Sequence record: OZ035728.1
From: Phapecoctavirus 536P1
DNA length: 64,000 bases
Direction: 5' to 3' (one strand)
In this document: positions 28,170 to 62,421 of the stretch, in pieces
Layout: the number at the start of each line of letters is the position of its first letter
Position numbering within the stretch: position 1 is the stretch's first letter
Position numbers and translations under genes: made by a program
Notes under the pieces: generated by a model
What the model was told of the DNA's origin: nothing
Databases searched by the model: none
Seen by the model: the letters and a program-made list of their open reading frames with translations, nothing else

Positions 28170-28211
28170 AAGTCTCTCCTATAAAATAGCCTCCCGAAGG
28201 AGGCTCATCTA

Positions 28212-29186
28212 TTAAACAGCAGCTTCTTCTTTTTCAGGGAAGATAAAGCTTGCAATAACACCAAGAGCTAATGTGCCTAGAACAATCATCAGACTTACGT
28301 TAGGGGAAATATCATGCGGGAGGAATGACCACTTGGCATGAAGTGTTTCACCGAACGGGTGATACATAAGTTTAGCACCAACAAACACCAGAACCACAGC
28401 AACAGCTTTCTCTAAGTGAACCAGATATTTCACAGCTACACTTAACACAAAGAAAAGTGCACGTAAACCAAGAACAGCCATCAGCATTGCAGAATAAACT
28501 AGCAGAGGTTCTTGTGTCACACCAATAACAGCCGGAACTGAATCAAAAGAGAACACAATATCTGTAAGCTCAATAACAAACACACAAAGAAGAGCAGGAG
28601 TTGCATATTTAATACCATTCTTAATGGTAATGAACTTTTCACCATCCAGTGCGTTGTGCACAGGCAGAACTTTACCTACTAAACGAACAGCCCAATGTTT
28701 AGAGTAATCAATATCTTCTTCTTCGTCACCACCTTTGATAATAGCAACGGCAGACCAAGCTACAATCAGACCGAACAACACTTGGACCGACCAATGCAGG
28801 TTAAACAAAGCTGTCCCTGCTGCAACAAAAACACCTCGGAAGACAATGGCACCTGCAATACCCCAAAGTAAAATCTTATGTTGGAGATGTGTGCTCTTAA
28901 TTCCAAAGCTTGCAAAAATTGCCATGAACACCATTAGGTTATCTACAGAAAGACTCTTTTCCAACACATATCCACTTAGGAAAAGTGCGGCAAACTCTTT
29001 ACCATGCTCTACCCAAATGAATGCGTAATATCCTAAAGCTAAAGCAATCCAAAAAACAGACCAAAGCAAAGCAGATTTAATTCCAATTTCTTTATTCTCT
29101 TTATGACCAAAGAAATCGATACCAATAGACAATGCCAAAATACCAACTAAAACAACTACATCAATAATTGGGAAACCGAGTTGCAT
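28212..29186 (-). CDS. terC: TerC-family integral membrane protein
   Basis: 324 aa, multiple TM segments; duplicated TerC motifs VLEKSLSVDNLMVF and IELTDIVFSFDSVPAV. Confidence 0.8.
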   Translation of the reverse strand: MQLGFPIIDVVVLVGILALSIGIDFFGHKENKEIGIKSALLWSVFWIALALGYYAFIWVEHGKEFAALFLSGYVLEKSLSVDNLMVFMAIFASFGIKSTHLQHKILLWGIAGAIVFRGVFVAAGTALFNLHWSVQVLFGLIVAWSAVAIIKGGDEEEDIDYSKHWAVRLVGKVLPVHNALDGEKFITIKNGIKYATPALLCVFVIELTDIVFSFDSVPAVIGVTQEPLLVYSAMLMAVLGLRALFFVLSVAVKYLVHLEKAVAVVLVFVGAKLMYHPFGETLHAKWSFLPHDISPNVSLMIVLGTLALGVIASFIFPEKEEAAV

Positions 29187-29213
29187 TCTTTTCTCCTCTC
29201 TTTGCGGGGAACT

Positions 29214-29262
29214 ATTCCCCGCTTCATGTGATATATCTTACTCTTTTTAAGAACTATGTCAA
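29214..29262 (-). promoter_or_regulatory. promoter-hairpin cassette upstream of terC (same architecture as the 51-60 kb array)
   Basis: minus strand reads TTGACA-N16-TAAGAT, then GCGGGGAA-TAG-TTCCCCGC stem-loop, then AAAGAGAGGAG leader and terC ATG. Confidence 0.6.
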
Positions 29263-29265
29263 CAC

Positions 29266-29487
29266 TTATTTTGTTGAATGAGAGGAAAAGATTCCTCGTA
29301 ATACCGCCAGAATAAACGAAACACAAACCACGGTCCAGAAGGTTACTGGGACAGTGATATCTGCATGACCCATAACTTCAGCAACATAGTTGTAAGCCAG
29401 CAACAGTAACCAAGCTGGAATCAAACTAAGCATAAAAGCAATAACAAAAAAGCTTACCACTGCAACAATACCTGCAAAAACACCCAT
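29266..29487 (-). CDS. small membrane protein
   Basis: 73 aa, two hydrophobic helices; SD AGAGGAG. Confidence 0.55.
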   Translation of the reverse strand: MGVFAGIVAVVSFFVIAFMLSLIPAWLLLLAYNYVAEVMGHADITVPVTFWTVVCVSFILAVLRGIFSSHSTK

Positions 29488-29499
29488 ACTAATCTCCTC

Positions 29500-29973
29500 T
29501 TAAAGTTTATAAATAGTCACATCGTGACCTGTTTTTACTAAAGTTTCTTCAATCATCACTTGGATGATAGCCCAATTACCTCCAGCATATCCAGCGCCAA
29601 TCATAGGTAAGCCGATCTTACATTTTTGGTCACGGAGAAGCAAATCATTAGCCATAGCTATTAGTGCATCGTAAAGTGCATCATAGTCCAACTGACGACC
29701 TTTAGCATTGTATCCGTAACGGTATTGTCCGTATAGATTATATACCAAAGGGTCTGATTGTTCGTCTGGCACCCCTAAACTAAAAGAACCTAACTTACTT
29801 TGATCACCAGCCATTGTGTCTAAATCTGCCGCATATGCATAAGGGAATGCTCGTTTAATTTGCGGAGCAATTCCTGCTCCCATATTACACATACAATTGC
29901 AACAATGAGCAATAACAGTTACTTCTCCTGCTTTAGCGGCATCAATAAGATTACCTGTTTTCATTTTAAGCAT
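29500..29973 (-). CDS. macro domain protein (ADP-ribose binding/processing)
   Basis: start at internal ATG with SD AAGGAG (track ORF extends to 30078); VIAHCCNCMCNMGAGIA and LPMIGAGYAGG macro-like blocks. Confidence 0.55.
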   Translation of the reverse strand: MLKMKTGNLIDAAKAGEVTVIAHCCNCMCNMGAGIAPQIKRAFPYAYAADLDTMAGDQSKLGSFSLGVPDEQSDPLVYNLYGQYRYGYNAKGRQLDYDALYDALIAMANDLLLRDQKCKIGLPMIGAGYAGGNWAIIQVMIEETLVKTGHDVTIYKL

Positions 29974-43721: not shown

Positions 43722-44152
43722 TTCTTCTTTCCTTTCTTTAATTTGTTGTGACCTTTACCCTTATAAAGCTTGTGATTACGAGCAGACGGGTTATTTTGGT
43801 TCTCCAGACGGCTAACAGGTGTATTCCAAAGGTTTCCTACTACAAAAGATGCTGCCACAAGTTCTTCCAGGTATACAAAATCCAAAGCAGGTATCTTTGT
43901 TTCCCTCATCTCGCGTTCTACATTAGACAACACGCCTTCTTCCTTACTGTCTTCTTTTTCAATTACAGACCAACCCTCTTCCTGCCAAGCTTCCCCTCTG
44001 AACCAAGTTTCCATGTTATAACCTTGTTCGTCGAGAATAACACCATCTCGCATCTCAAACCATTCGCCACCACAAAAATGGCGGTGCTCAACACGTCTAC
44101 CTTCCTTCATTGCTTCTTTAGCTTCGGGCCAAGTCAGTTTGATGTTTTGCAT
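43718..44152 (-). CDS. hypothetical protein, first gene of minus-strand block
   Basis: 144 aa; SD AAGGAG; promoter immediately upstream. Confidence 0.6.
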   Translation of the reverse strand: MQNIKLTWPEAKEAMKEGRRVEHRHFCGGEWFEMRDGVILDEQGYNMETWFRGEAWQEEGWSVIEKEDSKEEGVLSNVEREMRETKIPALDFVYLEELVAASFVVGNLWNTPVSRLENQNNPSARNHKLYKGKGHNKLKKGKKK

Positions 44153-44182
44153 TTGTTTTCTCCTTTTGTTTGGTAGGAGTTG

Positions 44183-44210
44183 ATCTTAACAAGATTAAAA
44201 AGTATGTCAA
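44183..44210 (-). promoter_or_regulatory. sigma70-like promoter (TTGACA-N16-TAAGAT) for minus-strand block
   Basis: consensus -35 with recurrent TAAGAT -10 about 30 nt upstream of ATG 44152. Confidence 0.55.
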
Positions 44211-44213
44211 TAC

Positions 44214-44241
44214 TTGATCTGAAATTATTTTCAGGTATCAT
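44214..44241 (+). promoter_or_regulatory. divergent sigma70-like promoter (TTGATC-N16-TATCAT) for plus-strand early genes
   Basis: back-to-back with minus-strand promoter; about 25 nt upstream of ATG 44267. Confidence 0.45.
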
Positions 44242-44266
44242 GTATGAACATTAACAAGAGAGGTAG

Positions 44267-44560
44267 ATGATGAACATTACTTTAGCAACTAAGAATATTT
44301 CTGAAACAATTAACGGTTTTGGTGTGATTGTAGCCTTGCACGGTAACAATGAGAAATGGTTGGCTTCTTTTGAAGAGGATCGTCAACACAACATTATTTT
44401 AGATGCCCCTATAAAAGTTATGCATATCGTTGGTGAAAGCAAAGTGCTCACTTCCTCCCGTTCAAAAGAACAAATTACAAATGAATTAGTAAAACTGCTT
44501 GACAATGTTCTTAACATGTTTGATAATGCACCCATCGATACAAAACGTGTCTTAATGTGA
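44267..44560 (+). CDS. hypothetical protein
   Basis: 97 aa; SD AAGAGAGG. Confidence 0.55.
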   Translation: MMNITLATKNISETINGFGVIVALHGNNEKWLASFEEDRQHNIILDAPIKVMHIVGESKVLTSSRSKEQITNELVKLLDNVLNMFDNAPIDTKRVLM

Positions 44561-50480: not shown

Positions 50481-50503
50481 GCAAATGATAATGATTCGCA
50501 TTT
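50481..50503. promoter_or_regulatory. Fur-box-like site (weaker)
   Basis: AAATGATAATGATTCGCATTT; shares TGATAAT core with Fur consensus GATAATGATAATCATTATC. Confidence 0.3.
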
Positions 50504-50540
50504 AAGTTTATAAATGAGATTGATTCTTATTCAATAAGGT

Positions 50541-50569
50541 AAATGATAATCATTCTCATTTAGAGAATG
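50541..50569. promoter_or_regulatory. Fur-box-like palindromic operator
   Basis: TGATAATCATTCTC matches Fur consensus core TGATAATCATTATC at 13/14; continues into palindrome TCATTCTCATTTAGAGAATGA. Confidence 0.45.
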
Positions 50570-50819
50570 ACGCGCAGGGGTGGTGTTTATCTCGCGCTCC
50601 CGTGTCCCCTCGCCATGTAATAAGAATAACAGATCCAGCCAGGAAAGCAAGCGATTATTTTTATCTTTACATTTCTTTACAAATTTATTTTAGACGAGCT
50701 ACCGGCGATCAACCTTCCAACCAGCGCCCTGGTATGTTAGCCCCGCCTTTACGCCGTGGGGTGGCGCTTCCTCTTCTGTATGTAAAACAGTATAAGCCCG
50801 ATCCCTGGGCTTGTCAAGA

Positions 50820-51086
50820 TTATTTTTTGTTTTCTTGCCAGGATAGGACACCTAACCAAAAATGCATATCGCCCCGCGCCCCTGGTGGGATCTTGCTTTC
50901 CCCGCCGCCACTGCAAGCCCATAAATAACCATCAGCGAACGGATCAAAGTTTTCTATTTCTTCCACCTTATGATCGCCCAGGTTGAGAACTGTTTCAGCC
51001 TTTAAGCCCGTTGCGCTTGCTACCTGGTGCACCGTGCCGCCTTGCCAGCCCAATGAGTGCATAAGGTGTAATGTAGTATTTGTCAT
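50820..51086 (-). CDS. hypothetical protein in GC-rich island
   Basis: 88-aa ORF with GC-rich codon usage unlike surrounding genes; weak SD. Confidence 0.35.
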   Translation of the reverse strand: MTNTTLHLMHSLGWQGGTVHQVASATGLKAETVLNLGDHKVEEIENFDPFADGYLWACSGGGESKIPPGARGDMHFWLGVLSWQENKK

Positions 51087-51195
51087 GGTGTCGCCCTTTC
51101 TTTGTTGTGCGCCCTGGTTGGCGCGGTAGAAAGATGATAGCCTTTTCCTTTATATATAGCAAGCAAAAAGAAAATAAAAAAGATTGAAAAAGTGG

Positions 51196-51224
51196 TTGAC
51201 GTTCCTCACCTGGTAGCGTAGTAT
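51196..51224 (+). promoter_or_regulatory. sigma70-like promoter (TTGACG-N17-TAGTAT) heading the cassette array
   Basis: hexamers about 135 nt upstream of ATG 51360. Confidence 0.45.
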
Positions 51225-51359
51225 TCATCTTGTCGAGGGGGGCGAGGCACAACGACAATAAACAACAGGAGGGCGCAATGTAGGACGGGCAAAGGTGAGG
51301 ATCTCCATAATCCACCGTCAACCAACAAAAAACATCATTCATCACCTGGAGTTAAAATC

Positions 51360-51557
51360 ATGGCAACATTGCACATTGTGGCGAAAGCTGGACAAATCAA
51401 CGTAATAGTAAACGGTTTTACTGAGTTCAGTCATCCCCAGGATGATCATGAAACGGTTTTATCTTTCATTGATTCCCTGTTAGAAATGGGAGTCATTACA
51501 GAAGACCAGCACGCTACAAAATGCAAGCGCGTTAATCAAATTGCAGGAATAGAATAA
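51360..51557 (+). CDS. hypothetical small protein
   Basis: 65 aa; first ORF of array. Confidence 0.55.
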   Translation: MATLHIVAKAGQINVIVNGFTEFSHPQDDHETVLSFIDSLLEMGVITEDQHATKCKRVNQIAGIE

Positions 51558-51563
51558 AAACTA

Positions 51564-51626
51564 TTGACAACAAACAACAACCTGATAAGATGTGTCACAT
51601 AGGGCGGCGGAATGGTCCAGCCGCTC
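51564..51626 (+). promoter_or_regulatory. promoter-hairpin cassette A
   Basis: TTGACA-N16-TGaTAAGAT then GGGCGGCGGAATGGTCCAGCCGCTC stem-loop starting about 3 nt after predicted +1. Confidence 0.6.
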
Positions 51627-51649
51627 ACAACAGAAGAGAGATTATAATC

Positions 51650-51922
51650 ATGGCATCATATAGCGCAACAATGATCGTAGCTGGCACCACTGGTAAACCT
51701 ATGAGCGGTGGCGGATCTTTCGCAAATATCAACATTGACGGGCGTTTATCCCTGGACGCAGCGATCACCGTGGCGCGGGAAACATTTAAGAAAGAATGTA
51801 AATTCAATAAACAAGATTATCTCGGTTTTGCTATTGAAAAAACCGCGCGCTTTGTTGATTATAAAAGCCCGAAAATGGTTGATACTACACTAAAAGCGCA
51901 AGATGTAGCGTTTTTGCTTTAA
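51650..51922 (+). CDS. hypothetical small protein
   Basis: 90 aa from ATG after purine-rich leader AGAAGAGAG. Confidence 0.6.
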   Translation: MASYSATMIVAGTTGKPMSGGGSFANINIDGRLSLDAAITVARETFKKECKFNKQDYLGFAIEKTARFVDYKSPKMVDTTLKAQDVAFLL

Positions 51923-51925
51923 GGC

Positions 51926-51980
51926 TTGACATTAACGAATAATTTGTTAATATGTTACATAAAGCGGGAATAGTTCCCGC
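51926..51980 (+). promoter_or_regulatory. promoter-hairpin cassette B
   Basis: TTGACA-N16-TAATAT then GCGGGAA-TAG-TTCCCGC. Confidence 0.6.
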
Positions 51981-51998
51981 TATTTGTAAGGTGGTAGA

Positions 51999-52256
51999 AT
52001 GTTTTACATCAAATTAAAAGGTCACGTGATCGCGTTCAAAGATAACGCTTTTTACAGATTAGCAAAATATGCGTTAATACATCCCCACTATGTTTATATA
52101 AGGGGGCGTGATGAAATAAATATCTTTGATCAAACAACATGCGAGAACATCGAGATCCGCAAGGTTGGCGTACGTGATTATCGTACATCTTTCTACCCTT
52201 GCAAGGATTCAGCAAGTCTTTTTAAAGTATGCCAATTGTTGAAAAAAGGTGGTTAA
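51999..52256 (+). CDS. hypothetical small protein
   Basis: 85 aa. Confidence 0.6.
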   Translation: MFYIKLKGHVIAFKDNAFYRLAKYALIHPHYVYIRGRDEINIFDQTTCENIEIRKVGVRDYRTSFYPCKDSASLFKVCQLLKKGG

Positions 52257-52257
52257 T

Positions 52258-52815
52258 ATGGGCCGCGAATATGTGATCCAGTCTTGGGTAAAACATGAAG
52301 CAGATGATCCGCGCATCATTCCCGATCATCTTATCGATGAATCCACGGGATATAGCGGTGAGCAAATAGGTAACAGATTAGCACGTAGTAACGGCAACGT
52401 AAAAGCGCGTTATGTGCGCCCTGGCTGGCTGGCAAATGGTAACGCTGATTTATCCAGTGCGGAAGATGCGAGCGACGGCGCGAAAGATAATCCTTTGTAC
52501 AAAATTGATCCGGCTTTTCGTGTCCTGGATGAATACCCCAGCAAGATAGCGGCGCTCGATCAGGCCCTGGAAAGTAAGCGCATCACCTGGACCGCTTACA
52601 ACATGGCAAAAAACGTACTTGATGGTAAATTGATTCAAGCTGAAAGGAAATTAGCCAAAATTGCAGCCATAGCCCAGGAGGAAGACGAGGAGACAACGGA
52701 AGAGGAAGAGTACGAAGAGATCCCGCCGTTGTTGTGTGTTGATGCTTTTCCTGATTATCAGCCGACAGAGGAAGAAAAAAGGATTGCACTAGAAAACTTT
52801 GAAAATAGTCTTTGA
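52258..52815 (+). CDS. hypothetical protein with acidic C-terminus
   Basis: 185 aa from ATG after SD AGGTGG. Confidence 0.6.
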   Translation: MGREYVIQSWVKHEADDPRIIPDHLIDESTGYSGEQIGNRLARSNGNVKARYVRPGWLANGNADLSSAEDASDGAKDNPLYKIDPAFRVLDEYPSKIAALDQALESKRITWTAYNMAKNVLDGKLIQAERKLAKIAAIAQEEDEETTEEEEYEEIPPLLCVDAFPDYQPTEEEKRIALENFENSL

Positions 52816-52869
52816 CATATCGCCGCCACTGGCATAATATTTACCACGTAGGGCGGCAATGGTGCCGCT
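52812..52869 (+). promoter_or_regulatory. promoter-hairpin cassette C
   Basis: TTGACA-N17-TAATAT then GGCGGCA-ATGG-TGCCGCT. Confidence 0.6.
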
Positions 52870-52897
52870 CATAGTGAAATTATGCAAGAGGTTTACA

Positions 52898-52993
52898 ATG
52901 ATTAATAAAGAAAATAGCTTGACGGTTGGAACGATTAACGCTATCATTTTCGCCGTTCCATTTTGGGTTGTAGTAGCGGCTATTATTTTCTAA
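52898..52993 (+). CDS. small hydrophobic peptide (31 aa)
   Basis: SD AGAGG; single predicted TM helix. Confidence 0.4.
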   Translation: MINKENSLTVGTINAIIFAVPFWVVVAAIIF

Positions 52994-53002
52994 AAAATAT
53001 TC

Positions 53003-53063
53003 TTGACAACGTTTTTTAATCTGATAAGATGTGTCACATAGGGCGGCGGAATACTTCCCCGCC
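53003..53063 (+). promoter_or_regulatory. promoter-hairpin cassette D
   Basis: TTGACA-N16-TGaTAAGAT then GGCGGCGGAATACTTCCCCGCC. Confidence 0.6.
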
Positions 53064-53084
53064 AAAACAAAAAAGGGTAACACA

Positions 53085-53447
53085 ATGAGCAAGCAAATCA
53101 ATACTATCATGTTTAATCTGGTATCTTTCCGCGATGATATGAAAAATTTACCACGTGAAACGGTTGATATTCATGTTTCAGCTTATCGCGCCCTTATTGA
53201 TATGTTACCGCTAAAACGTGATCAACATGCCGCTAATATGATGCTTAATGCTATGCTTAAAAAGATGATTCAAACGGATCTCACCCTGGCGTATGAGTAT
53301 CAAGGGCGCTTATATGCAACTTACAACAAGGCGGTACCTGGTCTGGGAAGTACCGAAGAGTTGCACGGCTTAAACCTGGATCAAAACACTTGGGATAGTA
53401 TGCGCCGCGTTATGATATGGGCCGAAAGCGGTAAAATTTACGAATAA
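53085..53447 (+). CDS. hypothetical protein
   Basis: 120 aa from ATG after leader AAAAAAGGG. Confidence 0.6.
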   Translation: MSKQINTIMFNLVSFRDDMKNLPRETVDIHVSAYRALIDMLPLKRDQHAANMMLNAMLKKMIQTDLTLAYEYQGRLYATYNKAVPGLGSTEELHGLNLDQNTWDSMRRVMIWAESGKIYE

Positions 53448-53452
53448 AAACG

Positions 53453-53512
53453 GTTGACACTGTTTAAACTTCTGGTATAGTTTACCACATAGGGCGGGAA
53501 GTGGTTTCCCGC
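53453..53512 (+). promoter_or_regulatory. promoter-hairpin cassette E
   Basis: TTGACA-N16-TGgTATAGT then GGCGGGAA-GTGG-TTTCCCGCC. Confidence 0.6.
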
Positions 53513-53535
53513 CAACAATGAAAAAGGTTATCATC

Positions 53536-53901
53536 ATGGCTATTAATATTAATGTTTCCGCTTATGCTACCCTGGCTAACACGGCTAAAATTGAATTATC
53601 CAGCATTGAGGCGGTGCATATTAGCGCCCGTCGCTGGTTTCAACGGTCCTACGGTAACACATATTTTTCTTTAATGGTTGACGTTGAGATCGGCGGTAAA
53701 CTGATCGAGGTGGTTAACGTTCCGTTTCAATATGGCTATGGTGATCATTTTGATACCGTCGCCCTGGAAGAGTTTAGCAAGGTTATCAACCTGGAAGGTA
53801 AAGAGTTTTCAAATTATGCCTACCTTTCCCGTTTTTGCCGTGACAATGGGATCACTGTATACAGTCATGCAAGCGATGTTAAACGTAAAAAAGATCTATA
53901 A
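53536..53901 (+). CDS. hypothetical protein
   Basis: 121 aa from ATG after AAAAAGG leader. Confidence 0.55.
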   Translation: MAININVSAYATLANTAKIELSSIEAVHISARRWFQRSYGNTYFSLMVDVEIGGKLIEVVNVPFQYGYGDHFDTVALEEFSKVINLEGKEFSNYAYLSRFCRDNGITVYSHASDVKRKKDL

Positions 53902-53907
53902 AAAGCA

Positions 53908-53969
53908 TTGACAGCACGAATAAAAAGAGTAAACTGTATTACATAGAGAGCGGGAATACTTCCCGCCTC
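53908..53969 (+). promoter_or_regulatory. promoter-hairpin cassette F
   Basis: TTGACA-N16-TAAACT then GCGGGAA-TAC-TTCCCGC. Confidence 0.55.
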
Positions 53970-53990
53970 ACTGAAAAAGAGATTAATATC

Positions 53991-54230
53991 ATGGCTAAAT
54001 CAAAAATGTTCTTAGGTCACAAAAATAAAACCCATTGGAATGTAAGCCTCTGGATTAATAACGATGAATCATTATATCGGTTGGCGAAAGAATTTATCGC
54101 CGCTAATACTAATCGTAATGATGCTGCGCGGGATATGATGCTTTTTCTGGAACAAACTGGACAAGATAAAACGCCAGACGGTTTCAAATATAGCACTACT
54201 GCGATCCGTGCCGCGATGGTTGGAATGTAA
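53991..54230 (+). CDS. hypothetical small protein
   Basis: 79 aa. Confidence 0.6.
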   Translation: MAKSKMFLGHKNKTHWNVSLWINNDESLYRLAKEFIAANTNRNDAARDMMLFLEQTGQDKTPDGFKYSTTAIRAAMVGM

Positions 54231-54239
54231 TAAAAACAG

Positions 54240-54299
54240 TTGACAACGTTTAAAATTAGTGTAAGATGTATCATATAGGGCGGGAAGTGGTTTCCCGCC
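54240..54299 (+). promoter_or_regulatory. promoter-hairpin cassette G
   Basis: TTGACA-N16-TGTAAGAT then GGCGGGAA-GTGG-TTTCCCGCC. Confidence 0.6.
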
Positions 54300-54320
54300 A
54301 AAACAGAGAGATTAAAGATT

Positions 54321-54548
54321 ATGGCTATCAATATTGTTCGCGTATCCGGCACCGTTGGCACTTCCCAGGTTATTGCAGTTGTAACAAACAAAAAGATTAA
54401 TGATGTATGTGAGATCTTGAATAAGTGGGCTGTTGCTAATTTTGGGGAATATGCAAGCGTCGAGTACATCGAATCCTACCAGGTGCCAACCATCAGCCTA
54501 ACCGATCTCAACGTTGATCGCCTGTTATGCCTGGATGAATTAATCTGA
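54321..54548 (+). CDS. hypothetical small protein
   Basis: 75 aa. Confidence 0.6.
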   Translation: MAINIVRVSGTVGTSQVIAVVTNKKINDVCEILNKWAVANFGEYASVEYIESYQVPTISLTDLNVDRLLCLDELI

Positions 54549-54557
54549 AAAAGATTG

Positions 54558-54620
54558 TTGACACGGGAAAGAAAAAGAGTAAACTGTATTACATCAAGGC
54601 GGCGGAATGGTCCACCGCCT
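54558..54620 (+). promoter_or_regulatory. promoter-hairpin cassette H
   Basis: TTGACA-N16-TAAACT then GGCGGCGGAATGGTCCACCGCC. Confidence 0.55.
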
Positions 54621-54643
54621 AACAAAGAGAAGAGGAAAACACC

Positions 54644-54811
54644 ATGATCACTTTCGCTACCCGTGAAGCCGCTCGCAATGTTGCCCGTAAAGTTAACGCC
54701 GCCAACCTGGGTGCTACGTTTAAAGCACCTGTAAAAGATGAATCAGGAAAATGGATCTTCCCTGGTCTGCGTCACGCTGATAAGCTAGGCACTTTAAGCC
54801 TTAAAAAATAA
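54644..54811 (+). CDS. hypothetical small protein (55 aa), N-terminus MITFA shared with next gene
   Basis: SD-like AGAGAAGAGG leader. Confidence 0.45.
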   Translation: MITFATREAARNVARKVNAANLGATFKAPVKDESGKWIFPGLRHADKLGTLSLKK

Positions 54812-54814
54812 TCG

Positions 54815-54854
54815 TTGACTTTTCGTTATAGCGCCCATCATAAGGCGCTATAGA
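54815..54854 (+). promoter_or_regulatory. atypical cassette I (TTGACT then ATAGCGCC-loop-GGCGCTAT palindrome)
   Basis: -35-like hexamer but hairpin sits where -10 is expected; different stem sequence. Confidence 0.35.
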
Positions 54855-54885
54855 GAAGAGAAACCACTACTAACAAGGAAACATC

Positions 54886-55107
54886 ATGATCACTTTCGCT
54901 ATTGTCGCCGTTGTTGCTGGTCAGGTTTACATAAACGATACATTCACCACAGAAGACAAGGCCGCAGGAGACATAACCGCCGTTTACAATGAGTGCAAGG
55001 CAGTAGAAAGGATGTTAGCGCCTTGTATGCTAATGAGTGAACGCCAGGACGGGATAACAGTATTTACTAACATTGAAACAGGGTACCAAATGGTAGTAAC
55101 AAAATAA
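54886..55107 (+). CDS. hypothetical small protein
   Basis: 73 aa. Confidence 0.55.
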   Translation: MITFAIVAVVAGQVYINDTFTTEDKAAGDITAVYNECKAVERMLAPCMLMSERQDGITVFTNIETGYQMVVTK

Positions 55108-55110
55108 AGC

Positions 55111-55167
55111 TTGACACGGATTTAATTTTCAGTAAACTGTTACACGTAGGGCGGGAATAGTTCCCGC
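55111..55167 (+). promoter_or_regulatory. promoter-hairpin cassette J
   Basis: TTGACA-N16-TAAACT then GCGGGAA-TAG-TTCCCGC. Confidence 0.6.
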
Positions 55168-55185
55168 TAAAAAGAGAGAAAGACC

Positions 55186-55539
55186 ATGAAAGCACAAAAT
55201 ACAATTAAAGAGTACATCCTTGCCGCTATCGATTTTAATGATTATGGTATTACAACCGAAAAAGAGAAGATCGCGGAATTGATGCGCCGTTTTAATTCCG
55301 AGTACTGGTACCCTGATAACCAATCACGTTTTAATTATAGTATTGTTAAAGCACTTGCATCATGGTTACAAGGTTTGCCATCAGATATCAATATCGCTTT
55401 CGAATATTGGGAAATTGATCGCTTGTTAACATCCTGGGGATACATTAAAGAGAATAGCAGCGATGATAAAATCCAACGAGAAAGGGAAAATTATTGGCTT
55501 TATATTGCAGGAGTGATCCTTGCTTGCTCTTATGAATGA
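55186..55539 (+). CDS. hypothetical protein
   Basis: 117 aa. Confidence 0.6.
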   Translation: MKAQNTIKEYILAAIDFNDYGITTEKEKIAELMRRFNSEYWYPDNQSRFNYSIVKALASWLQGLPSDINIAFEYWEIDRLLTSWGYIKENSSDDKIQRERENYWLYIAGVILACSYE

Positions 55540-55545
55540 TAAACC

Positions 55546-55600
55546 TTGACAATTTTACAAAACAGTTTAAATTAACAATATAGCGGCAATGGTGCCGCTC
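55546..55600 (+). promoter_or_regulatory. promoter-hairpin cassette K
   Basis: TTGACA-N16-TAAATT then GCGGCA-ATGG-TGCCGC. Confidence 0.5.
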
Positions 55601-55618
55601 ATATGAAGAGGAAACAAA

Positions 55619-55765
55619 ATGAAGACATCTAATCGCGCAGAAAAAATTCAATCTTCCAAGATCCGCAAGGCCTGGAACGAGGAAGTGATCCGCAAAGGCG
55701 ACAAGCGCAATAAAACAAAGCGCGGGAAGAGTGACAAATATAATTGGATGGATTTAGAGGATTAA
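55619..55765 (+). CDS. small basic protein (48 aa)
   Basis: Lys/Arg-rich; followed directly by terminator. Confidence 0.45.
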   Translation: MKTSNRAEKIQSSKIRKAWNEEVIRKGDKRNKTKRGKSDKYNWMDLED

Positions 55766-55772
55766 CATAACA

Positions 55773-55799
55773 AGGGCGCACCAAGCGCCCTTTCTTTTT
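55773..55799 (+). terminator. intrinsic terminator (GGGCGC-ACCAA-GCGCCC + T tract), copy 1
   Basis: identical hairpin and T tract recur at 60792. Confidence 0.75.
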
Positions 55800-55820
55800 A
55801 TATGTAGAGGATAAACAAAG

Positions 55821-56006
55821 ATGACTTTAAGCGAGCTTAAAACAGCCTACAACGCAACATTAAAAATAGCCGTGCGTTACCGTGATGCGTATGGTTTTAT
55901 CGCGCAGGGCGTGATCCTGGGCTTTTCTGACGATGGTTTGATCTATGTTGATGCACATCATAACAAGGTAAAACCTGAAAACGTCATTAGCATAAAATAT
56001 CTTTAA
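55821..56006 (+). CDS. hypothetical small protein
   Basis: 61 aa; SD GAGGA. Confidence 0.55.
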   Translation: MTLSELKTAYNATLKIAVRYRDAYGFIAQGVILGFSDDGLIYVDAHHNKVKPENVISIKYL

Positions 56007-56012
56007 AAGTGG

Positions 56013-56072
56013 TTGACACCATAACCGGACCTGTTAAACTGTATTACATCAGGCGGGGAATAGTTCCCCACC
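56013..56072 (+). promoter_or_regulatory. promoter-hairpin cassette L
   Basis: TTGACA-N16-TAAACT then GGCGGGGAA-TAG-TTCCCCACC. Confidence 0.55.
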
Positions 56073-56091
56073 ATACAAAAAGGTAAATATT

Positions 56092-56298
56092 ATGATCACC
56101 GCAAAACAAGAGAAAATCATTATCGACGTTGCAGCCGTTGCCGCTATTGCTATTATTGGATCTTATTATGATACCCGTTTCCCGTCGGCTATGCATGAGG
56201 TCGCCGCCGTTGCATCAGTTGGCGTACTGTTTTACGTTGGTAAACGCTATTTATCACCAATGATTAACAAGCTGACACCGTGGAAAAATAAAGGTTGA
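56092..56298 (+). CDS. small membrane protein
   Basis: 68 aa with hydrophobic segment. Confidence 0.55.
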   Translation: MITAKQEKIIIDVAAVAAIAIIGSYYDTRFPSAMHEVAAVASVGVLFYVGKRYLSPMINKLTPWKNKG

Positions 56299-56353
56299 TC
56301 CTGTTTTATATTGTGTTATAGTTATCGTGTAGGGCGGCAATGGTGCCGCGCCC
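56295..56353 (+). promoter_or_regulatory. promoter-hairpin cassette M
   Basis: TTGATC-N16-TATAGT then GGCGGCA-ATGG-TGCCGCG. Confidence 0.5.
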
Positions 56354-56369
56354 CTTTGAGGATGCAATC

Positions 56370-56654
56370 ATGAGTAAAGCTAACACCGTGCTAATGTTTT
56401 CCCTGATTAATGATCCCGCTTACTTGTCCAACATGACGCAGGAGGGTAACACATTAACGGCAACATTCACCAATAAGCTTGACCGAGTGATCATCATCTC
56501 ACTGAAAACAGTTAGTAAAGGCTTTTACTCGTTAGCTTATCATTGGATCACCGATACCGATGAGACAAGCCAGGACTATAGCGCCCCTTTCCCTGAATCA
56601 ATGGCACGGGAGATCATCGCCGCCGTTGTAAATGATGGTTTGTTTACTGAATAA
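56370..56654 (+). CDS. hypothetical protein
   Basis: 94 aa from ATG after SD GAGGA. Confidence 0.55.
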   Translation: MSKANTVLMFSLINDPAYLSNMTQEGNTLTATFTNKLDRVIIISLKTVSKGFYSLAYHWITDTDETSQDYSAPFPESMAREIIAAVVNDGLFTE

Positions 56655-56672
56655 AATAATTTAGAAAAAGGC

Positions 56673-56729
56673 TTGCAATCATTTTGAGATAGTGTATATT
56701 TAATTCATAGGGCGGCGGGAATAGTTCCC
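56673..56729 (+). promoter_or_regulatory. promoter-hairpin cassette N
   Basis: TTGCAA-N16-TATATT then GGCGGCGGGAA-TAG-TTCCC. Confidence 0.5.
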
Positions 56730-56752
56730 AAAGCAAACGAGAGGATTACACG

Positions 56753-56872
56753 ATGAGCAAGTACACAGTAGAATACACGGTAGAAAATCCGGCAGTATCC
56801 GAAGGTAAAAAGATGACATTTGCCATCAATATAATCGCTTTCGTTGTCACTATCTTATCAATCATCTTATAA
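56753..56872 (+). CDS. small hydrophobic peptide (39 aa)
   Basis: SD GAGAGGA; C-terminal TM helix. Confidence 0.45.
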   Translation: MSKYTVEYTVENPAVSEGKKMTFAINIIAFVVTILSIIL

Positions 56873-56882
56873 GGTGCACACC

Positions 56883-57044
56883 ATGAAAACAACAGATATT
56901 ATCAAAGAGATCGCCCTTGCCGCTGGCGTTGAGATCGAGGAAGTGATCGCGCTCAATCTTACAGAAAACGATCTGCGCAACTATGAAGCGGAAAGCGTGA
57001 AAGCAAGCGGCGCGGTCCTGGTATATGATCCGGCTAACAAGTAA
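56883..57044 (+). CDS. hypothetical small protein (53 aa)
   Basis: ATG 10 nt after stop of preceding peptide gene. Confidence 0.45.
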   Translation: MKTTDIIKEIALAAGVEIEEVIALNLTENDLRNYEAESVKASGAVLVYDPANK

Positions 57045-57053
57045 GGGGATAAC

Positions 57054-57203
57054 ATGAATCCGAAAGATATGCAAGCATGGAAAGGGTACGACGATCTAAG
57101 CGCCTTGCGCAATAAGTCAAGCCGTAACTTTAGACGGTTGGAAGCAAAGAAAAAGAAAAATAGTTTGACAAGTCCGCCTAGTCTGATAATATATATCTTG
57201 TAG
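57054..57203 (+). CDS. hypothetical small basic protein (49 aa)
   Basis: SD AAGGGGA; 3' end overlaps cassette O promoter. Confidence 0.35.
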   Translation: MNPKDMQAWKGYDDLSALRNKSSRNFRRLEAKKKKNSLTSPPSLIIYIL

Positions 57204-57222
57204 GGCGGCAATGGTGCCGCTC
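57165..57222 (+). promoter_or_regulatory. promoter-hairpin cassette O
   Basis: TTGACA-N16-TGaTAATAT then GGCGGCA-ATGG-TGCCGCT. Confidence 0.6.
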
Positions 57223-57241
57223 ACAAGAAGAGAGAAAAATC

Positions 57242-57526
57242 ATGAAAATCACAAAAAGCCTAACTAATTATGCAGCACGTCGCGGATTATGTTTAACCGT
57301 TGAAAACTTAGGGAAAGAAGACTTTTTGTGTTTTTGGGAGCTTGAAAATGATTGCGAGTGGATGTTTTCTTATTCTATCTGCGAAGATCAAAACGGTTGT
57401 TTGTTAACCTGGCGCGGTAATATCTGTTTACCGGAAGAAATTAAAGAAGAGTTACCAGGTACGATCATGACAGAGAGACAGCTTAAGGAAGTGATCAATT
57501 TTGTAGGGCAAAACATTAAAAAATAA
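57242..57526 (+). CDS. hypothetical Cys-containing protein
   Basis: 94 aa. Confidence 0.6.
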   Translation: MKITKSLTNYAARRGLCLTVENLGKEDFLCFWELENDCEWMFSYSICEDQNGCLLTWRGNICLPEEIKEELPGTIMTERQLKEVINFVGQNIKK

Positions 57527-57527
57527 T

Positions 57528-57590
57528 TTGACAGTAGGCAAACAACGTAGTAAAGTTTATTACATAGAGCGGCGGAATGGTCCACCGCTC
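57528..57590 (+). promoter_or_regulatory. promoter-hairpin cassette P
   Basis: TTGACA-N17-TAAAGT then GCGGCGGAATGGTCCACCGC. Confidence 0.55.
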
Positions 57591-57611
57591 ACAACAGAAG
57601 AGAAACAAATC

Positions 57612-57782
57612 ATGATCCCGACTATGTTTTATGTATCGCGCAAAGGTCACAATATTTTTTGGTCTGAAGATTTAAATGAAGCTATGACGTTTGCCCGTGA
57701 TCGTGTTGCTATCGGTGGCGTTAACATCACCGTAACCGATGAAAATGGCATTGAATACTATAACGGCGACGATGAAGAATAA
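57612..57782 (+). CDS. hypothetical small protein (56 aa)
   Basis: ATG after leader AGAAGAGAAACAAATC. Confidence 0.5.
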   Translation: MIPTMFYVSRKGHNIFWSEDLNEAMTFARDRVAIGGVNITVTDENGIEYYNGDDEE

Positions 57783-57788
57783 TTAATG

Positions 57789-57813
57789 AGGCGGGGGGAG
57801 TATTCCCCGCCGT
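57789..57813 (+). promoter_or_regulatory. leader stem-loop Q without recognisable promoter
   Basis: GGCGGGGGGAG-TAT-TCCCCGCC directly upstream of SD of gene 57831. Confidence 0.4.
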
Positions 57814-57830
57814 CAATAAAGAGGTAAATC

Positions 57831-58100
57831 ATGAAAATATCATTGGACGTTGCAATCAAGGCCATCGAATCCGGTTACATCCTGGTAAAAGATGATAAGG
57901 CTAAAATAGTGCATCATGTTAACAAGGAAACAGGCGAAAGCATGATCACATATAAAGCCGCCTACTTTCTCCAATCAGTAGCAGATCCGCGCGTACAACG
58001 CCAGGTTACGGCGGCTATTGCTAAAAAATTATGTGCTTTACAGGGTGCAAGTTTTAACGAGATTGCCCCGTGTTTTGAGTGGTCAAGCTTGAAAAAATAA
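57831..58100 (+). CDS. hypothetical protein
   Basis: 89 aa; SD AGAGG. Confidence 0.6.
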   Translation: MKISLDVAIKAIESGYILVKDDKAKIVHHVNKETGESMITYKAAYFLQSVADPRVQRQVTAAIAKKLCALQGASFNEIAPCFEWSSLKK

Positions 58101-58101
58101 T

Positions 58102-58163
58102 TTGACAACAATTATAAATCGGGTAGAATGTATTTCGTAGGGCGGGGCAATAAGGCAACGCCC
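58102..58163 (+). promoter_or_regulatory. promoter-hairpin cassette R
   Basis: TTGACA-N16-TAGAAT then GGGCG...CGCCC stem with long loop. Confidence 0.5.
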
Positions 58164-58181
58164 ATTAATGAGGGTAGAATC

Positions 58182-58286
58182 ATGTTAGAGAAAATTTTCA
58201 CGGTCGTAGTAGTGGGCCTGGCGTTATCGGTTGGAGTAGTTGCAACTATGGCTAATATGATCCTATCTTCCCACGGTATCGGCTAA
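58182..58286 (+). CDS. small hydrophobic peptide (34 aa)
   Basis: SD GAGGG; single TM helix. Confidence 0.4.
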   Translation: MLEKIFTVVVVGLALSVGVVATMANMILSSHGIG

Positions 58287-58300
58287 AAGAGAGACACAAC

Positions 58301-58687
58301 ATGAAAACAGAAATCATTATTGAAATCATCAACGGCTATAAAGAAGCCTTTATTTTTGCTGAATCAGCAAGGGATCATGAAGGTAATTTTATTGATAACT
58401 TAGACGATTATGATTTTTCTCCTAGCGCGGACGAACGGATCGCCCAGGATGTAACAGCCTTTATTAATGCTAATCTTGCCGCTATCTCTGAGGCAATGAG
58501 CGACGGCGCAACAGCCATCCAGATCGGGAGTGATTTACATTTTACCCGTAACGGTCACGGCATAGGCTTTTGGAATCGCCCTGAAATATACACTACTAAC
58601 ACGGCGAACCGCCTAACAAATGCCGCTAAGTTTATGCCTATTGTGTCGGCTTACATTGGTGAAGATAATTTGATTTATATTGAATAA
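58301..58687 (+). CDS. hypothetical acidic protein
   Basis: 128 aa; leader AAAGAGAGACACAAC. Confidence 0.6.
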   Translation: MKTEIIIEIINGYKEAFIFAESARDHEGNFIDNLDDYDFSPSADERIAQDVTAFINANLAAISEAMSDGATAIQIGSDLHFTRNGHGIGFWNRPEIYTTNTANRLTNAAKFMPIVSAYIGEDNLIYIE

Positions 58688-58693
58688 AAAGTA

Positions 58694-58751
58694 TTGACAC
58701 AGATCGCCAGTGTGCTAATATTTACCACGTAGGGCGGCAATGGTGCCGCTC
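58694..58751 (+). promoter_or_regulatory. promoter-hairpin cassette S
   Basis: TTGACA-N16-TGcTAATAT then GGCGGCA-ATGG-TGCCGCT. Confidence 0.6.
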
Positions 58752-58770
58752 ACTGTAAAAGGTAAACATT

Positions 58771-58962
58771 ATGAAAACTATCACCTATCTGGAATCTAAT
58801 AACATGTTTTTCGCCCCCGTTGATGAAATCATCGAAGCATTAAACAACGAGGAAGGGATCAAAGGTTTATCTTATAGCCAACTTTTAGGAATGGTTGCAG
58901 CAAATGAGGAGCTTGCTTACTATATTGAAAATTTTGATGAAGCTGTAATCTTTACAAAATAA
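58771..58962 (+). CDS. hypothetical small acidic protein
   Basis: 63 aa. Confidence 0.55.
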   Translation: MKTITYLESNNMFFAPVDEIIEALNNEEGIKGLSYSQLLGMVAANEELAYYIENFDEAVIFTK

Positions 58963-58964
58963 TC

Positions 58965-59021
58965 CTTGATCTAATCTCTCAGATAACTTATATTTAATGC
59001 GTAGGGCGGCAATGGTGCCGC
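58965..59021 (+). promoter_or_regulatory. promoter-hairpin cassette T
   Basis: TTGATC-N16-TATATT then GGCGGCA-ATGG-TGCCGCC. Confidence 0.5.
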
Positions 59022-59040
59022 CGATAATGAGGAAAACAAA

Positions 59041-59340
59041 ATGGAAACTATCGCTATTGTTACCGTAGAAAAACTGGTTGTTGGTGATGTATTCGCGTTA
59101 ATGGTGCCTAACAGCAGCAAGCTGGGCGCTTATGAAGTAATGGATCATAAAAATGAATCATTTGGCGACGGTTGCACAATGGCGGTAAAATCTTTAAAGG
59201 ATGGAATCATCCGCCAGGCTAACTGGCACAAAGGGAATCAAGTCGGTTTAATATCAGCTAATTTCTTGCCAGAAGAGCAAACATTAGATCAACTATCAGG
59301 CGGTAAGACGTTAGCCGAACTACTGGAAACAGCGATCTAA
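59041..59340 (+). CDS. hypothetical protein
   Basis: 99 aa. Confidence 0.6.
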   Translation: METIAIVTVEKLVVGDVFALMVPNSSKLGAYEVMDHKNESFGDGCTMAVKSLKDGIIRQANWHKGNQVGLISANFLPEEQTLDQLSGGKTLAELLETAI

Positions 59341-60791: not shown

Positions 60792-60818
60792 AGGGCGCAC
60801 CAAGCGCCCTTTCTTTTT
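60792..60818 (+). terminator. intrinsic terminator (GGGCGC-ACCAA-GCGCCC + T tract), copy 2; closes cassette array
   Basis: identical to terminator at 55773. Confidence 0.75.
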
Positions 60819-60959
60819 GCCCGAACAATGTTGATAGCTTTCGCCTATGAAAAACCGACACAGAACAAAATTGAATAAATAGCGGTATCAAGCTAATCAA
60901 CCATTAAACGAATAACCATACCTCCCAGGGTAACAGGCTGTTAGAGAGCCATTTATAGC

Positions 60960-61320
60960 GGTTAAAATCGATCAACAACCAACAACAAACCATCAAAAAC
61001 ACCTTTTTACCTCCTTTCTAGTGCAATGATAACCATTATCATCTACCCATGATTATCTATGCAATATAAGCGCATAACTATAATGTTGATAATAGTTCGC
61101 AACAACTAACCAACAAACAACATAAAACAATAAGCAAACTAATCATAATCAAAGGAATAATAGCAAGATGATTGATAACGACAAACAATCAAACCATGAT
61201 AAATACTAAGCAAAATAACGATAACACGACAAAACAACCAACTAACGAACAATAACAAACGAAACCATTAAAATAATAACTATTAGCAAAATAGTGCATG
61301 AATGAAATCATTACAAAACG
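60960..61320. repeat. A/C-rich, G- and T-poor low-complexity tract without ORFs
   Basis: runs such as CAACAACCAACAACAAACCATCAAAAACACC and AACAACATAAAACAATAAGCAAACTAATCATAATC; strong strand asymmetry. Confidence 0.6.
61026..61043. promoter_or_regulatory. Fur-box-like site
   Basis: TGATAACCATTATCATC resembles 3' two-thirds of Fur consensus. Confidence 0.3.
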
Positions 61321-61882
61321 AATCATTCACAGAGTCATCATTAGCACGCTACGCCGGACACGTAGCGAGCTAATAATAAGCCAACTACACCCCAACAATC
61401 ATAACCATCGGTGACGGTTATTTCTTGTTACTGCGTAGCTTGCAATAATTGCAAGCGTAATGACGCTTACACTTATTGCGCTGGCTTATTATTAGCATTA
61501 TATGTAATTACCAAGATCATAACATTAGCGCAATAACAATAATCATTGTGGTAATTACAAGAGTTATCACTATCGTTCAGTGTGATCATCATTAGCAGGA
61601 TGAATAATTGCACGTAGCAACATGAGCGAATAGCGACAGGTTGCATAGTGTGCACATAGTGTATAAACATACAAGAAAATAAAGGCTAATCTTTTGGGGG
61701 CGAATACTATCGCGTAGCGATATGTTGAGCACTAAGAGAAGAGATAAACCTTAATCATGGGGGCGTAAATATCCGCAGGATTGCCAACGGCGATCCGGTA
61801 GGATGTTGAGCACCTTCTCTTAAACGTAAATAAAATCAGAAAATTCTTGATTTATTTTAGTTTTTATGTTAATAAACGTTTA

Positions 61883-61900
61883 AATAATAATCATTCTCAT
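61883..61900. promoter_or_regulatory. Fur-box-like site
   Basis: AATAATAATCATTCTCAT; 12/14 to TGATAATCATTATC core. Confidence 0.4.
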
Positions 61901-62061
61901 ATAAATAATAGTCCGTCTGTCATGAGCGGGATCAGTTGACAATGTTCCGTCATATGATGAAGTTGCCAAACCATTGATAAATAAGTGTTTGTGTGATTTA
62001 TAATCAGGTGGCCCACCTTGTCGCTATGTTGGCATGAGCCTTGCATAAGTCATTGAATACG

Positions 62062-62085
62062 AATGATAATTATTCTCATTCTCAT
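62062..62085. promoter_or_regulatory. Fur-box-like site
   Basis: AATGATAATTATTCTCATTCTCAT; 12/14 to Fur core with duplicated TTCTCAT. Confidence 0.4.
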
Positions 62086-62421
62086 GATATTTGGGAATTG
62101 TCGCTGCGTGGACCTGACGGCCCGAAAATTCGCGTTAAGCACTTCTTACGTATGCGCCATGATTTTTGCCATATCATATTGATTCTATTAGATATTCTTG
62201 CCATGATTGCCATGAAACAGGGTGTCCCGAAATAATCTCTCCCCGTAGATATTTTGGGTTACTTTTTATACAAGAGCGGGGTGTCAAAAATAATCGGTAT
62301 ATATGGGATAATTGATAGGAATCCCCTATGATAATTCGATTGTAATTCCCTAAGATTGATCGTATGATGTTGGTGATTGATGATTGCCATGAAAGATGGC
62401 TAACGATGAGAGGAGATTGTC

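Follow-up and report, generated by a model that had tools for sequence, protein, structure and literature searches.

The question raised by this locus is why terC, a gene in the replication block of a coliphage, is preceded by an intergenic region that resembles the promoter-hairpin-leader cassettes of a distant array of small genes, and what such a cassette may do there. The window, that is, the whole stretch of 64,000 nt analysed here (Phapecoctavirus 536P1, record OZ035728.1), comes from a phAPEC8-like coliphage of the genus Phapecoctavirus (subfamily Stephanstirmvirinae, genome about 150 kb), and its nearest database records are 99.5-99.9% identical to it at terC. The product of the gene belongs to the TerC family (Pfam PF03741, 138.2 bits vs a cut-off of 27.8, E = 3e-40). 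The gene itself lies in a leftward replication and nucleotide-metabolism block, together with the genes for DNA polymerase, primase/helicase, UvrD helicase and ribonucleotide reductases. Our literature search found no paper on these cassettes in Stephanstirmvirinae and no transcript start, timing or half-life data for any phage of this subfamily. Among other database records, MG065650 (Campylobacter phage B15) and OP562383 (Acinetobacter phage ABPW7) are ~98-99% identical to the coliphage at terC, and OR584014 (Pseudomonas phage PsgM04F) shows about 75% identity; the host labels of these three records look doubtful.

Read on the minus strand from 29262 to 29184, the region upstream of terC consists of TTGACA, a 16-nt spacer, TAAGAT, a hairpin, a leader and the ATG, just as a previous sequence-only reading had described (Table 1). 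That reading had the location right, but the span that it gave (29214-29262) ends in the middle of the hairpin, and the full element is longer at both ends. The start site in Table 1 was derived from sigma-70 promoter geometry. The gap between the stop codon of the upstream 73-aa ORF and the terC start is 79 bp. The hairpin has a folding energy of -13.1 kcal/mol, its stem lies 6 nt past the predicted start, and none of the 8 nt that follow it is a U. The leader as a whole is more stable than its shuffles (z = -2.5), and the hairpin dominates its fold; in the minimum-free-energy structure, part of the AGGAG is weakly paired to the first codons.

Table 1 Features of the terC locus and of the cassette array in the window
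Feature	Position	Strand	Details
73-aa membrane-protein ORF 5' of terC	29266-29487	-	stop codon 29268-29266
Full terC cassette element	29187-29270	-	A-rich tract through leader
A-rich tract AATAAGTG 5' of the -35	29263..29270	-	overlaps stop of the 73-aa gene; aligned to AAAAAnnn in the array copies
-35 hexamer TTGACA	29257..29262	-	
-10 hexamer TAAGAT	29235..29240	-	spacer to -35 of 16 nt
-10-to-hairpin segment ATATCACATGAA		-	12 nt, between TAAGAT and stem
Predicted transcription start	29227..29229	-	A at 29229 or 29227, 6th-8th nt past the -10
Hairpin GCGGGGAA-TAG-TTCCCCGC (RNA 3' arm UUCCCCGC)	29204..29222	-	perfect 8 bp, triloop
A/G-rich leader AAAGAGAGGAGAAAAGA	29187..29203	-	Shine-Dalgarno AGGAG 29197-29193, 6 nt to ATG
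terC ATG	29186-29184	-	17 nt past stem
terC CDS	28212..29186	-	324 aa
Terminator-like hairpin AGCCUCC-UUCG-GGAGGCU + AUUUUAU	28181..28205	-	begins 6 nt past terC stop
Cassette array, presumed early	51556..59043	+	18 strong paralogous promoter-hairpin-leader cassettes, each preceding a small ORF

On its downstream side, terC is followed by a terminator-like hairpin, not mentioned in the earlier reading, which is kept in phi92, in Klebsiella phages and in IMG/VR contigs with compensatory changes in the stem, and which is annotated as a terminator in the GenBank record of the relative ASO2A. The nearest strong same-strand terminator upstream of terC is at 35438-35418. With a terminator right behind it and a predicted promoter and leader of its own, terC therefore looks like an autonomous promoter-hairpin-gene-terminator unit. 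A scan of the leftward block revealed no further intergenic promoter-plus-hairpin unit besides that of terC, the other same-strand TTGACA matches falling within ORFs. The promoter at the head of the block (44210-44183, minus strand) carries hexamers identical to those of terC (TTGACA/TAAGAT) and no hairpin, which indicates that the hairpin is not required for promoter function as such. This promoter has an N16 spacer, an extended -10 TG and an unstructured leader, and it lies in a divergent promoter region (44150-44270) where minus-strand genes switch to plus-strand genes.

To compare the terC region with the array, a profile HMM was trained on 17 array copies, with the terC copy left out, and both strands were scanned with it (nhmmer). 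This profile, together with RNAfold folding of each copy, was chosen because the hairpins vary in length and MAFFT misaligned their 3' arms, which made the alignment unsuited to a covariance model; hairpins were likewise parsed by RNAfold because a simple helix parser misread bulged stems. The terC copy scored 40.5 bits against this array-only profile (E = 1e-11), outscoring five of the 18 other strong matches, namely four of the training copies and a newly found copy at 58959. It also aligns in register with the array copies through the A-rich tract, -35, 16-nt spacer, -10, hairpin and leader, which bears out the claim that terC carries the array cassette in full. Its geometry fits as well: the distance from stem to ATG is 17 nt (9-23 in the array), and that from -10 to stem is 12 nt, 1 nt beyond the array range of 4-11. 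The pattern TTGACA-N15-18-TAAGAT occurs five times against 0.09 expected, and the exact hexamer pair of terC recurs in the array copies at 51564, 53003 and 54240. With up to three mismatches allowed, the 19-mer of the terC hairpin has just one other locus, in the array at 56053 (one mismatch; 0.00 expected). On the strength of these matches, the terC upstream region is evidently a true paralogue of the array cassettes.

The placement of the terC copy differs from that of the array copies: it lies on the minus strand and precedes a 324-aa gene instead of a small ORF. The array copies start at 51564 on the plus strand, in agreement with the earlier statement that the two are 22 kb apart on opposite strands. 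The same reading had proposed a search for further copies, and this yielded none outside the array besides terC. In the window outside 51.5-60.4 kb, the terC cassette is the sole significant profile match. In the complete ASO2A genome (151,660 bp), the same profile gave 23 matches, 22 of which form one contiguous plus-strand array wrapping the record ends, while the remaining one (44.8 bits) precedes terC; thus, terC is the sole out-of-array cassette gene in that genome. The array is itself presumed to be early, and the shared promoter sequence suggests that terC would be expressed with this class.

Among known systems, the closest described class, which the sequence-only reading did not name, is the PeSL (promoter-early stem-loop) cassettes of the T4-type phages RB49/phi1, PST and nt-1 (Arbiol et al. 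2010, PMC2839356; Comeau et al. 2014, PMC4122927), to which the terC and array cassettes are analogous. Both are composite intergenic elements of ~80-100 bp that combine an A/T-rich tract with a strong sigma-70-like promoter and a stable G-run/C-run stem-loop, ahead of a Shine-Dalgarno sequence and a start codon. Both are also repeated many times before small ORFans in a plastic early region (here the array), with indel junctions between close relatives falling within the elements (again, here in the array). However, the present lineage is Stephanstirmvirinae rather than a T4-like myovirus, and its cassettes contain no U-tract. Moreover, the stem-loop here always follows both the -10 and the predicted start, and hence lies in the 5' UTR, whereas it lies mostly between or over the hexamers in RB49/phi1 and upstream of the promoter in PST. 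The terC copy differs further in that it sits in a conserved replication/nucleotide-metabolism block and serves a conserved 324-aa gene, not an ORFan. The PeSL class also has experimental hallmarks, namely promoter and terminator activity in reporter assays and mini-circle formation. As a separate observation, the window contains a variant cassette at 54815-54888 (plus strand) with TTGACT and a hairpin, TATAGCGCC-CATCATAA-GGCGCTATA, that occupies the expected -10 position, a layout like that of the PeSL subclass whose stem-loop covers the -10.

The position of the hairpin was then analysed in 39 cassettes parsed from the window and ASO2A, counting the 7th nt past the -10 as the predicted start. 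The stem begins 0-6 nt past this start (median 4), and the median hairpin dG is -13.1 kcal/mol. The distances from hairpin to promoter and from hairpin to ATG are both constrained, so that their variance does not discriminate between a hairpin tied to the promoter and one tied to the start codon. The 8 nt behind the hairpin contain 1.3 U on average, and five or more U in one of the 39 cassettes. Because the hairpins start so close to the predicted start and lack U-tracts, they are not canonical intrinsic terminators, and this interpretation was rejected for the terC hairpin as well. Instead, the cassette hairpins would be a distinct class that forms the 5' terminus of every mRNA initiated at the predicted start sites. 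The ASO2A GenBank record labels the terC hairpin and many array hairpins as rho-independent terminators, with WebGeSTer as the sole source, and the Paula record labels cassette hairpins in the same way, some of them on the wrong strand; the ASO2A paper counted 9 promoters and 55 terminators, and did not discuss the pairing of promoters with hairpins.

One cassette copy consists of a hairpin alone: at 57790-57815 (within 57783-57833, plus strand), GGCGGGGGGAGTATTCCCCGCC is followed by a leader and an ATG between two array genes, with no -35/-10 in front. This copy suggests that the hairpin works, or persists, also when it is not 5'-terminal. It fits the model proposed for PeSL stem-loops by Arbiol et al. 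(2010), in which the hairpin would be an attenuator or terminator that blocks or damps read-through from upstream, the cassette genes including terC using their own promoter only. A PeSL stem-loop placed between a promoter and lacZ reportedly lowered expression about as much as rrnB T1 did (PMC2839356), and the WebGeSTer calls on terC and many array hairpins in the ASO2A record point the same way. However, 38 of the 39 hairpins, that of terC among them, have no U-rich tail, and a hairpin 3' of the promoter would also hit the cassette's own transcripts. Where the phage does terminate, it uses a distinct design, namely the conventional T-run terminators at 55772-55792 and 60792-60810 (plus strand), both in the same early region, and the one behind terC. 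We thus regard attenuation as an unlikely role of the cassette hairpin. The two plus-strand terminators share a near-identical stem-loop, AGGGCGCACCAAGCGCCCT, and constitute a second repeated regulatory element.

Several other RNA-based functions were considered. An RNase III site was rejected, since the cassette stems, at most 10 bp long, would be too short for one. Antitermination of the lambda nut/boxB-like or put-like type was set aside: the array genes each have a promoter of their own, and the motif CUCACAACA, which follows some of the array hairpins, is absent from the terC leader. A riboswitch or other known RNA was likewise rejected, with no Rfam match at the gathering threshold in the window. 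Leaders with a yybP-ykoY Mn2+ riboswitch precede bacterial terC, alx and mntP genes, and are usual for terC and alx; phage terC is similar in having a structured 5' leader before a TerC-family gene. Nevertheless, its leader is only ~43 nt long with a simple hairpin, and neither yybP-ykoY nor any other Rfam family matched at up to E = 10 in 28900-29600. The short, simple hairpin and the lack of an Rfam match suggest that metal-sensing control may have been swapped for an early-promoter cassette in phage terC.

Having placed the terC copy in the family, we examined whether it is maintained in related phages. The same arrangement was found in phi92 and Paula (Justusliebigvirus), in KP2025 and phi1_175008, which infect Klebsiella, and in contigs of IMG/VR, where the search for further terC loci returned five contigs. 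The orthologous leaders have good hexamers, spaced by 17 nt or, in phi92, by 16 nt, and their 19-nt hairpins lie in the same register, while their stems diverge (GCGGAGGA/TCCTCCGC, GAGGGAG/CTCCCTC and GGGAGAG/CTCTCCC). In an alignment of the leaders of nine terC orthologues, taken from three phage groups, five of the eight stem pairs showed double compensatory changes, 94% of the cells were paired (53-65% in slid-partner controls), and the observed covariation score was reached by none of 500 shuffles. These results demonstrate that the hairpin pairing at terC is under selection. Against the Phapecoctavirus profile, the terC copy of Paula reaches only 19 bits, although this phage has 17 or more array cassettes that belong to the same family. 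The cassette occupies the same site in Phapecoctavirus, Justusliebigvirus and Klebsiella phages and has diverged there, indicating that its placement at terC is evidently ancient and vertically inherited, with no recent transposition. In another Klebsiella phage, KP13-16 (locus positions 1457-1486), terC lies 28 nt after the upstream gene, with no promoter or hairpin and with the post-terC terminator retained; this phage represents a natural cassette-less control.

The covariation is compatible with an RNA hairpin and a DNA palindrome alike. In a test meant to tell the two apart, sense-strand G.U and A.C mismatches numbered 5 vs 4, which favours neither; the orthologue alignment contains two sense-strand G.U pairs and no A.C, too few for a decision. 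The element might act as RNA, or as a DNA inverted repeat at +5 to +25, by binding a phage or host factor that switches the whole early regulon, terC included, off or on. Its fixed position just past the start site in about 20 promoters, the selected pairing, and a loop and closing region that are semi-conserved across the paralogues (GAAUAGUUC, GCAAUGGUGC and GGAAUGGUCC) would be in line with such binding. On the other hand, the stems vary widely within the genome and among terC orthologues (GCGGGGAA, GCGGAGGA, GAGGGAG, GGGAGAG), which argues against a single sequence-specific binder of double-stranded DNA. The loops are variable too (UAG, AUGG, UGG, UUG, AUAGG), and no candidate regulator was found. 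Taken together, we consider factor binding of this kind quite improbable. A more far-reaching idea, which we rate as a long shot, is that the 5' hairpin serves as a regulon-wide RNA tag through which a phage or host factor, such as a nuclease, chaperone or translation factor, jointly sets the lifetime or shut-off of all early transcripts, with terC as the sole non-ORFan enrolled subfamily-wide in this host-takeover regulon. If this were true, the manipulation of membrane or metal (Mn2+) physiology would be an immediate-early task of infection.

The sequence-only reading had also called the cassette a portable regulatory unit. For the array, this is consistent with the indel junctions found when the arrays of ASO2A, nieznany and ESCO13 were set against that of the window. 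Of the 18 breakpoint ends, nine lie within cassettes, although cassettes cover 22.6% of the region (binomial p about 0.01), and the alignments on either side of three events overlap, by 32-64 nt. Because the array events are few and one of them is common to two relatives, this enrichment is suggestive rather than conclusive, and the overlaps, too, are a suggestive signature of a "gene + cassette" unit joined within repeated cassette sequence. For the terC copy, in contrast, portability does not hold in the sense of a recent hop, its placement being old. At this locus, DNA homology to phi92-type phages starts within the promoter spacer, and an extra 82-aa gene, gp183, lies between the gp184 homologue and the cassette in phi92-type and Klebsiella phages. 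A replacement of the upstream gene at the cassette was rejected, since the 73-aa ORF is the homologue of phi92 gp184 and the difference between the genera is a one-gene indel of gp183 that adjoins the cassette.

These junctions raise the possibility that the element is mainly a DNA recombination substrate, and that the terC copy is a scar with no regulatory role, terC being transcribed by read-through. The breakpoints and overlaps in the array, the gp183 indel next to the terC cassette and the terC gene of KP13-16, which has no cassette, could all be accommodated by this explanation. Yet, despite about 25% DNA divergence across genera, the hexamers, spacer length, pairing and Shine-Dalgarno leader have been kept at terC, so the element is unlike a neutral scar; besides, a role in recombination is compatible with a regulatory one. 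We therefore find it very improbable that the terC copy is such a scar.

We propose, with a probability of roughly 0.6, that the terC intergenic region, a genuine member of the cassette family, is part of an autonomous unit comprising an early sigma-70 start, a 5' stabiliser or insulator hairpin and a UUCG-loop stop. The unmodified host sigma-70 RNA polymerase would initiate at ~29227-29229, and terC would be expressed within the first minutes after infection, at the same time as the array genes. The first ~25 nt of the transcript would fold into a stable G/C hairpin located 4-6 nt from the 5' end. Transcription would stop at the UUCG-loop terminator. The hairpin is also expected to isolate the A/G-rich Shine-Dalgarno leader from the upstream context, in promoter-initiated and read-through transcripts alike. 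An unpaired 5' segment as long as that predicted at terC is reportedly at the upper limit that still protects an mRNA (Bouvet and Belasco, in 1992). Single-stranded 5' termini are a requirement of RppH and RNase E alike, and this accounts for the stabilisation by 5' structure that has long been known (PMC3997798); a hairpin at this position should therefore prolong mRNA life, and that of terC may do so by shielding the 5' end from RppH and from 5'-end-dependent RNase E.

The 5' UTRs of ompA and papA provide precedents for such 5'-terminal stem-loop stabilisers (Emory, Bouvet and Belasco 1992, reviewed in PMC3997798). They resemble the predicted arrangement at terC in having a stable hairpin a few nt from the 5' end and then an accessible ribosome-binding site. 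The ompA leader, however, is longer and has two elements, whereas a single short hairpin module is found here on about 20 genes. Several points speak against a stabiliser: the 4-6 nt predicted to be unpaired at the 5' end of the terC transcript are at the upper limit given above; a promoter-less hairpin (57790-57815) and a hairpin-less promoter (44210) both exist; and a related PeSL stem-loop reportedly lowered the expression of a downstream reporter as a strong terminator would (PMC2839356).

As a unit, terC with its promoter-like and terminator-like elements in a larger co-oriented block also invites comparison with morons. In the classic definition, morons belong to temperate phages and are expressed from the prophage. 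In lambdoid phages, the moron gene is flanked by its own promoter and terminator (PMC2839356). The terC unit differs in that it belongs to a virulent phage, is co-oriented with its surroundings, old and conserved across genera, and takes its promoter from a repeated family.

The terC cassette does not overturn current understanding, but it may change how these genomes are read. For the about 150 sequenced phAPEC8- and phi92-like phages that are therapeutic candidates, roughly twenty features labelled "rho-independent terminators" more likely mark where early mRNAs begin, and these hairpins would belong to one reusable promoter-hairpin-leader module. With these cassettes, the PeSL concept reaches beyond T4-type phages. 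A testable hypothesis also follows, namely that TerC, a conserved auxiliary membrane/metal-homeostasis protein, is co-expressed with host-takeover genes from its own insulated unit. In addition, the compact 79-bp part, with its strong promoter, 5' hairpin and ribosome-binding site, is a possible synthetic expression cassette.

Two regions flanking the array were also noted. A GC-rich patch at 50500-51350 contains a lone minus-strand ORF (50820-51086) amid plus-strand genes, followed by a promoter, TTGACG-N17-TAGTAT at 51196, whose leader has a G-run and no array-type hairpin. Right after the array, the ORF-poor, AT-rich stretch at 60800-62420 (GC 0.36) contains three copies of AATRATAAYCATTNTCAT and several inverted repeats; it has no Rfam or tRNA match, corresponds to a ~1.5-kb unannotated gap in ASO2A (5151-6660), and could be a replication origin or another cis-acting region.
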